Shown piece after piece: positions 5,451 to 9,928 of a stretch of 64,000 nucleotides of DNA. The DNA is taken from positions 60 through 64,059 of the forward strand of contig CALGGB010000312.1 in assembly GCA_937880925.1 (NCBI GenBank). The letters run 5' to 3'. Position 1 is the first letter of the stretch. Every line of letters begins with the position of its first letter. The DNA comes from an uncultured Rhodospirillaceae bacterium (lineage in GTDB: Bacteria; Pseudomonadota; Alphaproteobacteria; SP197). The translations under genes and the position numbers were made by a program. The notes under the pieces are model-generated. The model was given only the letters and a program-made list of their open reading frames with translations, was not told the DNA's origin and did no database searches.

Positions 5451-5957
5451 GTGAACCGATTCCTCGATCGCCTGAGCGCTCTTGCCGTTGCGCTGGTTAT
5501 TGCCTCAACCGCAATCCCGGCAACCGCCGCCGACCTGCCCGAACCCACCGGGGAGGTCATCCTGACCGTCAGCGATCGCGCCGGCGATACCGTGGCGCGT
5601 TTCGACCGTGCCATGCTGGAGGCCCTGCCCCAGACCACGGTGGCGACCTCGACCGACTGGACCGACGGCCAGCCGGTCTTCACCGGCCCCCTGGCACGTG
5701 ACGTGCTGGCCGCCGCGGGCGTCTCGGGCACCATCGTCGATGCCGGCGCGCTCAACGACTACCATGTCACCTTTCCCGCGGCCGACTTCGCCGACTGGGA
5801 CGTCATCCTGGCGATGACCATGGACGGCACGCCGCTTTCGGTGCGCGACAAAGGGCCGATCTGGATCGTCTATCCGCGCGACGATAATCCCGGACTCGCC
5901 AATCCGGAGGTCAACTCCCGCTGGGTCTGGCAGCTCCAGAGCCTGACCCTCGACTGA
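5451..5957 (+). CDS. periplasmic protein of unknown function (signal peptide), encoded immediately upstream of the hybrid sensor kinase
   Basis: GTG start with a GGAGA RBS 6 nt upstream. The N-terminus (NRFLDRLSALAVALVIASTAIPATAADLPEPTG) is a Sec signal peptide. The gene ends 4 nt before the kinase gene. Confidence 0.5.
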   Translation: MNRFLDRLSALAVALVIASTAIPATAADLPEPTGEVILTVSDRAGDTVARFDRAMLEALPQTTVATSTDWTDGQPVFTGPLARDVLAAAGVSGTIVDAGALNDYHVTFPAADFADWDVILAMTMDGTPLSVRDKGPIWIVYPRDDNPGLANPEVNSRWVWQLQSLTLD

Positions 5958-5961
5958 TCCC

Positions 5962-8508: not shown

Positions 8509-8518
8509 CGGAGCGATC

Positions 8519-9928
8519 ATGAGCGATATCCTGCTCGTCGAGGACACGGCCTCGCTGGCGCTCGTCTATCAGGAGCACCTGCGCAAGGCCGGCCTGGCAA
8601 GTGACCATGTCGATACCCTGAAGGCCACCGCGGCACGCCTGGAGCAGATGCCGCCGCGCGTCGTGTTGCTCGACCTGCAACTGCCGGACGGCAACGGCCT
8701 CGACCTGCTGAAGGAATGTGGCGCCGAATCGCCCGCCGCCTTCATCGTCATCACCTCCCACGGCTCGATCAACACTGCGGTCGAGGCTATGCGCCTGGGC
8801 GCCTGGGACTTCCTGGTCAAGCCCTTCAGCGAGGAACGCCTGGTCACCACCGTGCGCAACGCCCTGGAACGCAGCGAACTGCGCCGCCTGGTCGCAGTGA
8901 TGCAGGAAGACCTGGGCCGCGAGCGCTTCCACGGTTTCATCGGCTCCTCCCTGCCCATGCAGGCGGTCTACCGCATGGTCGAGGCGGTTGCCTCCTCACA
9001 GGCTACCGTCTTCATCACCGGCGAAAGCGGTACCGGCAAGGAGGTCTGCGCCGAGGCGATCCACAAGGCGAGCCCGCGGCGCGCCAAACCCTTCGTGGCG
9101 CTCAACTGCGGTGCCATTCCCCACGACCTGATGGAATCGGAGATCTTCGGCCACCTGAAGGGTTCCTTCACCGGCGCCATTGCCGAACGCAAGGGTGCCG
9201 CGCGCGAGGCCGACGGCGGCACCCTGTTCCTCGACGAGATCTGCGAGATGGATCTTTCACTCCAGACCAAGCTGCTGCGCTTCCTGCAGACCGGCACGGT
9301 GCAGCCCGTGGGCAGCGCCAGGCCCGAGAAGGTCGACATCCGCGTGCTCTGCGCCACCAACCGCGACCCCTGGGCCGAGGTCGAGGCAGGCCGCTTTCGC
9401 GAGGATCTCTACTTTCGTCTCCATGTCGTGCCGATCCATCTGCCGCCCCTGCGCGAGCGCGAGAACGACACGATCGAGATTGCCGAGGCGTTCATCGCCC
9501 GCTTCGCCAGGGAGGAGGGCAAGGCCTTCAAGGGCATTGACGACGACGCCCGCGCCCTGCTGCTGGCCCATCCCTGGCGCGGCAACGTGCGCGAGCTCCA
9601 GAACGTCATGCGCAACGTCGTCGTGCTACACGACGGTCCGACCGTCACGGCCGACATGCTGCCGCCCCAGATCGCGCGCGATACCGTGATCCCAGCCGCG
9701 ATGCCGCGGCGCCGGGCCAGCGACAAGGGGACAGCGGCTTCCGCGACGGAGGACACAGGCGATACGCGCCAGCTCTGGGAGATCGAGCGCGATGCCATCG
9801 AAGCCGCCATCGCGGCCAAGGGCGGCAGCATTCCCAAGGCTGCGCAGCAGCTTGGCGTCAGCCCCTCGACGCTCTACCGCAAGCGTGAGTCCTGGATCGC
9901 CGAAGGCAAGCTCGGCCCGGCGGACTGA
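8519..9928 (+). CDS. luxO: sigma-54-dependent response regulator, LuxO ortholog (NtrC family)
   Basis: The REC domain begins LLVEDTASLALVY. The AAA+ sigma-54 interaction domain carries GESGTGKE and the GAFTGA-like FTGAIAERKG. LuxO-specific blocks are present: GSINTAVEAMRLGAWDFLVKP, ATNRDPWAEVEAGRFREDLYFRLHVVPIHLPPLRERENDTIEIAEAF and GNVRELQNVMRNVVVLHDG…TADMLPPQ. A C-terminal Fis-type HTH closes the protein. Confidence 0.9.
   Translation: MSDILLVEDTASLALVYQEHLRKAGLASDHVDTLKATAARLEQMPPRVVLLDLQLPDGNGLDLLKECGAESPAAFIVITSHGSINTAVEAMRLGAWDFLVKPFSEERLVTTVRNALERSELRRLVAVMQEDLGRERFHGFIGSSLPMQAVYRMVEAVASSQATVFITGESGTGKEVCAEAIHKASPRRAKPFVALNCGAIPHDLMESEIFGHLKGSFTGAIAERKGAAREADGGTLFLDEICEMDLSLQTKLLRFLQTGTVQPVGSARPEKVDIRVLCATNRDPWAEVEAGRFREDLYFRLHVVPIHLPPLRERENDTIEIAEAFIARFAREEGKAFKGIDDDARALLLAHPWRGNVRELQNVMRNVVVLHDGPTVTADMLPPQIARDTVIPAAMPRRRASDKGTAASATEDTGDTRQLWEIERDAIEAAIAAKGGSIPKAAQQLGVSPSTLYRKRESWIAEGKLGPAD

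Follow-up and report, generated by a model that had tools for sequence, protein, structure and literature searches.

A PruR-like periplasmic protein and a hybrid kinase with a predicted link to a LuxO-family sigma-54 activator in an uncultured member of the Rhodospirillaceae

We analyzed a four-gene unit in a stretch of 64,000 nucleotides (nt) from an uncultured Rhodospirillaceae bacterium (contig CALGGB010000312.1), hereafter called the window. The unit comprises genes for a secreted PruR-like protein, a hybrid sensor kinase, a LuxO-like response regulator, and a secreted protein resembling spore coat protein U (SCPU), the last preceded by a LuxO-type box and a predicted sigma-54 promoter (Table 1). 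We consider it fairly probable that in this unit a PruR-DTB pterin-sensing system signals to a LuxO-family sigma-54 activator. Two known kinds of system are here combined in a new way, and the result is not a Vibrio-style quorum-sensing circuit. A first-pass annotation of the sequence had located the first three genes correctly, including the gene for a 168-amino-acid (aa) periplasmic protein 4 nt ahead of the kinase gene, as the open reading frame (ORF) coordinates confirm. It missed the PruR identity of that protein and the LuxO box and sigma-54 promoter before the downstream gene. Since only 4 nt and 10 nt separate them, the pruR-like, kinase, and regulator genes appear to form one operon.

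Table 1. Features of the four-gene unit (positions in the window; aa, residues of the encoded protein; TM, transmembrane segment)
Feature	Position	Strand	Details	Basis
Candidate sigma-54-type promoter TGGCACGGGGTGTGC	5392-5406	+	Lies 45 nt before the start codon of the pruR-like gene	Pattern search
Periplasmic-protein gene (pruR-like)	5451-5957	+	168 aa from a GTG start codon; signal peptide ends in ATA, followed by AD
Hybrid sensor kinase gene	5962-8508	+	848 aa; 4-nt gap after the pruR-like gene
Kinase, layout	aa 11-327	+	TM1 aa 11-31; periplasmic aa 32-176 (nt 6055-6489); TM2 aa 177-198; PAS 224-327	Pfam, motifs, hydropathy
Kinase, catalytic part	aa 347-814	+	HisKA 347-412; HATPase 460-569; REC 590-702; Hpt 746-814	Pfam
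Kinase, phospho-residues		+	H357 nt 7030-7032; D639 nt 7876-7878; H779 nt 8296-8298	Motifs
LuxO-like regulator gene	8519-9928	+	469 aa; 10-nt gap after the kinase gene
LuxO-type upstream activating sequence TTGCATTCCGCAA	9941-9953	+	13 nt past the regulator stop; consensus TTGCAWWWTGCAA
Possible second, imperfect site TTGCGAAGCGCCAA	9963-9976	+	Half-sites TTGC/GCAA with one extra spacer base; weak
Predicted sigma-54 promoter TGGCACAGGACTTGA	10071-10085	+	130 bp past the box; SCPU-like start codon 78 nt on
SCPU-like gene, probable target	10163-10639	+	Secreted, 158 aa, two conserved Cys, C-terminal AGTYRDTITIQIAAK strand

The periplasmic protein is a PruR homologue

Sequence comparison and structure modeling identify the 168-aa protein as a PruR homologue, a secreted protein with a truncated sulfite oxidase (SUOX) fold that is predicted to bind a pterin. 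Its AlphaFold2 (AF2) model reached a predicted local distance difference test (pLDDT) score of 91.8, and the top Foldseek matches in the Protein Data Bank were the PruR proteins of Agrobacterium tumefaciens, Klebsiella pneumoniae, and Vibrio cholerae (E 1.7e-17, 42% identity). The TM-scores against 7kos, 7rkb, and 7kp2 were 0.85-0.91 by target length and 0.71-0.80 by query length, and sulfite oxidases aligned to the model in part only. Furthermore, phmmer matched the protein to 7kos with an E value of 7e-30; the Pfam family Oxidored_molyb scored 29 bits only.

In PruR, W70 replaces the molybdenum-binding cysteine of sulfite oxidases, and N102, Y104, and W160 hold the pterin ring (Greenwich 2024, PMC11194511). 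All four residues were invariant at identical positions across 30 homologues of the window protein, which had no conserved cysteine, and a pairwise alignment with 7kos agreed on each of them. In line with this, the ligand of the window protein is likely to be a pterin.

The kinase has a DcpA-type sensor domain and a fused Hpt domain

The kinase contains the Pfam domains PAS_4, HisKA, HATPase_c, Response_reg, and Hpt, so that the HisKA-HATPase-REC-Hpt series reported by the first-pass annotation indeed lies in one polypeptide. H357 is found in the motif SHEIRTP and D639 in DIAMPEMDG. The Hpt domain (PF01627, residues 746-814) scored 30.9 bits, where the Pfam cut-off is 24.6, and has its phospho-accepting histidine, H779, in the motif SHILSG within SHILSGLAPTFG. 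It had been described as LuxU-like; the Hpt assignment holds, but nothing apart from the match to the Hpt family in general links the domain to LuxU. The best NCBIfam model for the whole kinase was TorS, with 377 bits, below the cut-off of 676.

The periplasmic domain of approximately 145 aa lies between two TM segments and carries a WX7E motif (W47/E55). PruR-DTB systems were defined by a pruR gene directly upstream of a gene for a protein with two TM segments and a 138- to 150-aa DcpA-type periplasmic domain with WX7E; the cytoplasmic part of that protein is a histidine kinase resembling TorS or BaeS, in many cases equipped with PAS and REC domains (PMC11194511). The window pair agrees with this description in the 4-nt gap, the two TM segments, the WX7E domain of approximately 145 aa, and the PAS-HisKA-HATPase-REC arrangement. 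Because a PruR-type periplasmic protein is thus paired with a kinase that has a DcpA-type WX7E periplasmic domain, we assign the pair to the PruR-DTB class, which accounts for 23-29% of more than 5,500 PruR pairs and whose outputs are unknown (PMC11194511).

The periplasmic domain of the kinase was also sought on GGDEF/EAL proteins among PruR partners, but the five partners checked were kinases or class III cyclases, and none was a GGDEF protein. Therefore, the homology of the kinase domain to DcpA rests on the WX7E motif, size, and topology.

The regulator belongs to a broad LuxO-like family

The regulator consists of the Pfam domains Response_reg, Sigma54_activat, AAA_lid_14, and HTH_8. Its key residues are present, namely D52, the Walker A sequence GESGTGKE, the GSFTGA loop, and the Walker B DE. 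GSFTGA is a natural variant, since a serine occupies position 2 of GAFTGA in 16 of 86 family representatives.

The first-pass annotation had judged this protein to be LuxO-like and not a generic NtrC, and our data bear this out. With NCBIfam models it scored 600 bits for LuxO (E 2.9e-180), 390 for NtrC, and 324 for NtrX, so that LuxO led NtrC by 210 bits. Among proteins of solved structure, LuxO (5EP0) gave 458 bits and NtrC1 318 bits, and the quoted LuxO motif blocks were visible in a residue-by-residue alignment with 5EP0. The regulator is 53-58% identical to LuxO proteins of Vibrionaceae. Among 1.84 billion cluster representatives, its rank-8 match was cluster P0256, which holds an Enterovibrio protein named LuxO by NCBI and whose representative is 70% identical to 5EP0. 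Full-length identity between the regulator and this bona fide Enterovibrio LuxO is 53%, and the recognition helix SPSTLYRK of the window protein corresponds to SPSTIYRK in the Enterovibrio one. Of the 86 full-length top representatives, 76 matched the LuxO model at an E value of 1e-125 or less, and 4-5 matched NtrC or AtoC at that level.

A neighbor-joining tree of 118 sequences, from which SypG, TacA, NtrC, and NtrX references were left out, was star-like. It set the whole sequence set apart from NtrC1, but the branching of Vibrionaceae LuxO relative to the Rhodospirillales clade was not resolved. Neither of the two outcomes that the first-pass annotation had named as refuting its reading, a phylogenetic place inside NtrX/NtrC and an Hpt domain lacking the phospho-accepting histidine, was obtained. 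Since the star-like tree leaves the finer relationships unresolved, we assigned the family by profile scores. By this measure the regulator is a member of a broad LuxO-like family of which Vibrionaceae LuxO appears as one twig. The term "Vibrio-type LuxO ortholog" from the first-pass annotation is not supported in the functional sense: the score of 600 bits lies under the LuxO equivalog cut-off of 800 (NCBIfam NF041946), and Qrr, a separate LuxU, and an autoinducer synthase were not found in the window, as detailed below.

A glycine in the R-C linker (G141 in V. angustum) lets the linker occupy the ATP site and is specific to LuxO (Boyaci et al., PMC4878744). In the window regulator, G139 (HGFIG) aligns with the glycine of the LuxO sequence QGFIG, and NtrC1 has a glutamate at this position. 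The linker glycine was found in half of the family representatives (43/86).

An alphaproteobacterial host for such a regulator had been called unusual. This could not be upheld, because LuxO-like proteins are common in Rhodospirillales: homologues with approximately 60% identity are widespread (Azospirillum, Skermanella, Pelagibius, and others), and many of them are labeled "repressor protein LuxO" by JGI.

In Azospirillum halopraeferens, A. brasilense, and Skermanella pratensis (loci L008, L010, and L011), the LuxO-like gene has no PruR nearby. There it is followed by a gap of 300-430 bp, a 69-aa cold-shock-domain gene, and a convergent gene for a hybrid kinase of 1,000-1,100 aa with an Hpt domain; no conserved LuxO box or sigma-54 promoter was recognized in the gap.

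A LuxO-type box and a predicted sigma-54 promoter precede the SCPU-like gene

We searched for LuxO boxes with the pattern TTGCANNNTGCAA, which is the LuxO upstream activating sequence with the central triplet left free. When up to one mismatch was allowed, TTGCATTCCGCAA was the only match to it anywhere in the 64 kb of the window. In the related loci L004 and L006, whose regulators are 85-89% identical to that of the window, the box reads TTGCATTCTGCAA. Exact matches to the pattern were present in L004, L006, L037, and L064, and the qrr1 promoter of the Enterovibrio control contained the box TTGCATTTTGCAA, as expected. The possible second site TTGCGAAGCGCCAA is kept in part in L004 and L006.

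Compared with the consensus TGGCAC-N5-TTGC, the promoter TGGCACAGGACTTGA is perfect in its -24 GG and in its spacing, and CTGGCACnnGACTTGAAAC is kept in L004 and L006. Box and promoter stand out as conserved islands in these two loci. Similarly, the core TGGCACGG-N3-GTGCA of the candidate promoter ahead of the pruR-like gene is kept in both loci, and the rest of that intergenic region has diverged.

The SCPU-like protein had only eight homologues in a protein database search, and JGI names it "spore coat protein U-like." Judged by this arrangement, the regulator probably switches on the neighboring pilin-like gene via the sigma-54 promoter; that the regulator binds the box and that the target functions as a pilin are predictions from sequence.

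The leader of the SCPU-like gene folded no better than shuffled sequence (z -0.43). A conserved ACTCCC that pairs with GGGAGT was considered as an anti-Shine-Dalgarno leader and rejected: because it occupies roughly positions -11 to -4, counted from where transcription is expected to start, it is probably untranscribed.

LuxO boxes in PruR loci co-occur with LuxO-like genes

A genome scan with the PruR alignment yielded 320 loci, of which the best 80 were surveyed; a LuxO-like gene was counted if it scored more than 400 bits and lay within 8 kb. In these 80 loci, the gene after pruR nearly always starts with a domain homologous to the first 205 aa of the window kinase. A LuxO-like regulator was present in 12 of them, including loci of Pelagibius, Denitrobaculum, Nisaea, Thalassobaculaceae, Paracoccaceae, and Neomegalonema. 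In several of the 12, the job that a single polypeptide does in the window is split between a DTB kinase and a second, Hpt-bearing hybrid kinase. Perfect LuxO boxes were found in 7/12 loci with a LuxO-like gene versus 0/68 without (Fisher p 2.5e-7). Since these boxes mostly lie approximately 150 bp upstream of pruR, they suggest autoregulation.

The most informative evidence on the output is the distant locus L037. There, an SCPU-like homologue with 38% identity heads an operon in which a PapD_N chaperone gene and then an Usher gene follow. The 430-bp region between this operon and the divergent genes for PruR and the Hpt-bearing kinase contains two LuxO boxes, one of them perfect, and two perfect sigma-54 promoters, one directed to each side. 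By chance, 0.01 such boxes and 0.02 such promoters would be expected.

Several other loci differ in what follows. In L064 (13276-13320), from a Neomegalonema metagenome-assembled genome (MAG), the stop codon of the LuxO-like gene is followed after 25 nt by a perfect box (TTGCACTTTGCAA), which is thus placed as in the window. The gene from approximately 13372 encodes a 511-aa protein that, by visual inspection, may be of the Wza-like (polysaccharide-export) kind. In Pelagibius (L009, 8923-9240 and 9382-9440) and Denitrobaculum (L030, 14602 and 15059), two sigma-54 promoters come after the LuxO-like gene. Downstream of the first come a 57-aa ORF and a terminator-like hairpin, and the product may instead be a small RNA; the second, TTGGCACGCTTCTTGTGATG, is conserved between both genera and precedes a UDP-glucose dehydrogenase gene. 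In two further MAGs (L017, 8348-10564; L061, 8381-10540), the gene after pruR encodes a DcpA-type sensor domain, PAS domains, and, at the end, a class III cyclase domain (PF00211). Because PMC11194511 and PMC13259868 give only diguanylate-cyclase and histidine-kinase outputs, a class III adenylate/guanylate cyclase would be a third PruR output type.

Proposed mechanism

We propose that the secreted PruR-like protein, in its pterin-bound or its free form, makes contact with the kinase at the periplasmic WX7E domain of the latter, and that this contact would set the kinase/phosphatase balance. Phosphate would then pass from H357 to D639, on to H779 in the fused Hpt domain, and finally to D52 of the regulator. 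The phosphorylated regulator, possibly freed from a LuxO-type linker block, would bind the LuxO-type box and activate the sigma-54 promoter of the secreted pilin-like (SCPU-type) gene. Since that promoter would drive a secreted pilin-like gene, we expect a surface or adhesion trait as the output, as opposed to a Qrr small RNA. PruR together with pterin reduces attachment in A. tumefaciens (Feirer 2015, PMC4488946); at the window locus, the effect of pterin may have either sign.

Several observations weigh against this interpretation. PruR-DTB systems as a class were defined bioinformatically, without experimental study (PMC11194511, PMC13259868). In the window, the box carries one mismatch, and the -12 element of the SCPU-like gene promoter reads TTGA in place of the canonical TTGC. 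The same -12 variant, CTTGAAA, occurs in the sigma-54 promoter CTGGCACATCGCTTGAAA (19096-19110), which together with an NtrC-type palindrome, TGCATTGCACTGCACA, precedes the ammonium transporter gene (amtB; regulatory region 18997-19110, gene to 20506, plus strand), and the sigma-54 of the host therefore probably accepts it. No LuxO box was found in the window clade within 520 bp upstream of the candidate promoter of the pruR-like gene. The assignment of the target is also affected: the SCPU-like protein matched Pfam SCPU (PF05229) over the full profile length but below threshold (16.5 bits, E 0.011, cut-off 22.4), and its AF2 model, built from the eight homologues, had a pLDDT of 36. A scan of approximately 55 window genes revealed no chaperone or usher gene, and neither rpoN nor a pteridine reductase gene (pruA) was seen within the 64-kb window. 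Finally, of the residues E322, H325, and G329 that form the R-C interface of LuxO (PMC4878744), the regulator keeps E322 but has glutamate for H325 and alanine, a small residue, for G329, where NtrC1 has lysine.

Alternative explanations

Could the unit be a true Vibrio-style quorum-sensing system, in which an autoinducer receptor kinase signals through an Hpt protein and LuxO to Qrr-type small RNAs that control a master regulator? The 53-58% identity to Vibrionaceae LuxO, the shared box motif, and the same H-D-H-D relay logic speak for it, and excreted pterins could in principle report cell density (PMC13259868). However, the sensor is of the PruR-DTB type and not of the LuxN, LuxPQ, or CqsS type, and the promoter of the SCPU-like gene leads after approximately 65 nt, through a leader without significant structure, to a protein-coding gene with a signal peptide. 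The first-pass annotation had suggested looking for Qrr RNAs and autoinducer synthases, and both searches came out negative. With the gathering threshold, Rfam gave no Qrr match across the window; 9800-10800 had none at an E value of 5 or less either, and none appeared in nine related loci, whereas the Enterovibrio control was detected with 82 bits. The gene order of this control is uvrB-qrr1-luxO-luxU, with luxU directly after luxO; at the window locus there is no separate Hpt gene, the Hpt being the C-terminal domain of the upstream kinase. No member of the LuxI, LuxM, CqsA, or LuxS families was found among the window genes scanned. Because none of Qrr, a free LuxU, and an autoinducer synthase family was found in the window, the quorum-sensing explanation is not supported, and we regard it as very unlikely.

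A generic NtrC-family system for the neighboring metabolic genes (TauD-like, ureidoglycolate-lyase-like, OYE reductase), with a functionally meaningless LuxO resemblance, would fit the position of the cassette among metabolic genes, as the genes for CHMI, TauD, and Ureidogly_lyase lie upstream of it in the window and in L004 alike. In L006 and L007, however, unrelated genes take the place of TauD and CHMI and the four-gene unit is retained. In addition, box and promoter point to the SCPU-like gene, L037 pairs the same unit with a pilus operon, and the profile gap of 210 bits favors LuxO over NtrC, all of which makes a generic system distinctly improbable. The idea that box and promoter serve another activator, or that the SCPU-like gene is constitutive and the regulator acts only at distant sites, draws on the non-canonical -12 element, which is shared with the presumably NtrC-dependent amtB promoter, and on the fact that binding of the regulator to the box is predicted from sequence only. 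Yet perfect boxes strictly co-occur with LuxO-like genes (7/12 versus 0/68), and the amtB promoter carries a different, NtrC-type palindrome. We give this explanation very little credence.

The nature of the signal leaves more room. The PruR-like protein may sense something other than a pterin, such as another heterocycle or the redox state, or the cytoplasmic PAS_4 domain may mainly drive the kinase. No ligand is known for the PruR proteins of DTB systems, specificity may vary from one PruR group to another (review PMC13259868), and the PW motif of A. tumefaciens PruR is DW in the window protein. Nevertheless, N102, Y104, and W160, which sandwich the pterin or hydrogen-bond to it in the solved complexes, are invariant across the 30 homologues, and we consider a different signal unlikely.

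Comparison with known systems

With PruR-DcpA of A. tumefaciens and with PruR-DTB systems, the unit shares the truncated SUOX fold, the tryptophan in place of the molybdenum-binding cysteine, the residues N102, Y104, and W160, and a pruR gene directly upstream of that for a two-TM protein with a WX7E periplasmic domain of approximately 145 aa. As in DTB proteins, the cytoplasmic part of the kinase is TorS/BaeS-like with PAS and REC domains. In contrast to PruR-DcpA, its output is predicted to be phosphotransfer and not cyclic di-GMP (c-di-GMP) turnover, and it differs from both in the fused Hpt domain, the LuxO-family sigma-54 partner, and a target that can be predicted. A term search turned up LuxO neither in PMC11194511 nor in the 2026 review PMC13259868, and no sigma factors in the latter.

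The LuxN/LuxQ/CqsS-LuxU-LuxO-Qrr pathway of Vibrionaceae, where qrr1 is divergent from luxO, resembles the unit in an H-D-H-D relay ending on a REC-AAA+-HTH sigma-54 activator, in the linker glycine and recognition helix, and in a box of the TTGCA-N3-TGCAA type 110-130 bp upstream of a sigma-54 promoter adjoining the regulator gene. The window unit differs in carrying its Hpt on the kinase, in having a PruR-DTB sensor, and in a predicted target that is protein coding and not a Qrr RNA. In the TorT-TorS-TorR system of Escherichia coli, too, a periplasmic ligand-binding protein regulates a hybrid kinase that has a helical periplasmic domain and a C-terminal Hpt; however, TorT belongs to the periplasmic binding proteins and has no relation to PruR, the regulator TorR is of the OmpR type, and the window kinase stays, as given above, below the TorS cut-off.

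By analogy, the closest functional counterpart of the output arm is SypG of V. fischeri. In that bacterium, the hybrid kinases RscS and SypF, which have Hpt domains, feed SypG. As proposed for the window, a LuxO-like sigma-54 activator there acts directly on genes that encode the components of a surface or biofilm trait. A paralogue of LuxO, SypG turns on the syp biofilm genes directly from sites overlapping LuxO boxes (PMC10162802). The sensors differ, and SypG controls an 18-gene polysaccharide locus. Measured against LuxO in both cases, SypG is approximately 47-48% identical (PMC10162802) and the window regulator 53-58%.

Significance

When PruR systems were described in 2024, no outputs were assigned to the kinase-type (DTB) class, about one-quarter of more than 5,500 pairs. 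The window locus and its relatives offer a testable DTB output, with a LuxO-family activator, a recognizable predicted box, promoters, and a pilin-like target. They also indicate that LuxO-like proteins, their DNA-binding helix, and the box motif also occur outside Vibrio quorum sensing, which bears on the evolution of LuxO-Qrr. As a caution, the KEGG/JGI label "repressor protein LuxO" is no evidence of quorum sensing in alphaproteobacteria.

We tentatively put forward a wider idea, which we hold to be conceivable but somewhat short of probable: LuxO-family activators outside Vibrionaceae may serve as the transcriptional output arm of periplasmic pterin sensing, fed through Hpt domains by PruR-DTB kinases and acting through Vibrio-type boxes on sigma-54-dependent adhesion genes. 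On this equally tentative footing, the targets would be Csu-like pili here and polysaccharide genes in other lineages, often together with the activator's own pruR operon. If this is true, Vibrio LuxO-Qrr quorum sensing would be a derived specialization of an older surface-attachment regulator, and pterin signaling would steer attachment via two parallel currencies, c-di-GMP and sigma-54-dependent transcription.

Genomic setting

The GC content is even throughout the cassette region, and the remainder of the window is an ordinary alphaproteobacterial chromosome with ftsK, miaB-phoH-ybeY-corC-lnt, metK, mucR, and fur. Contigs from aquatic metagenomes carry the same DNA. Genes for an Acetyltransf_5 (OlsB-like) protein and an Acyltransferase (OlsA-like) protein adjoin each other at 34785-36487 (plus strand), which suggests ornithine-lipid synthesis and not an acyl-homoserine-lactone synthase. 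Striking for a bacterium is an array of ten tandem paralogues at 52998-61488 (minus strand), each of approximately 278-311 aa, all of which match Pfam Sulfotransfer_1 (PF00685) and are sulfotransferases of the cytosolic type; the array is followed by a porin gene (61654-62886).

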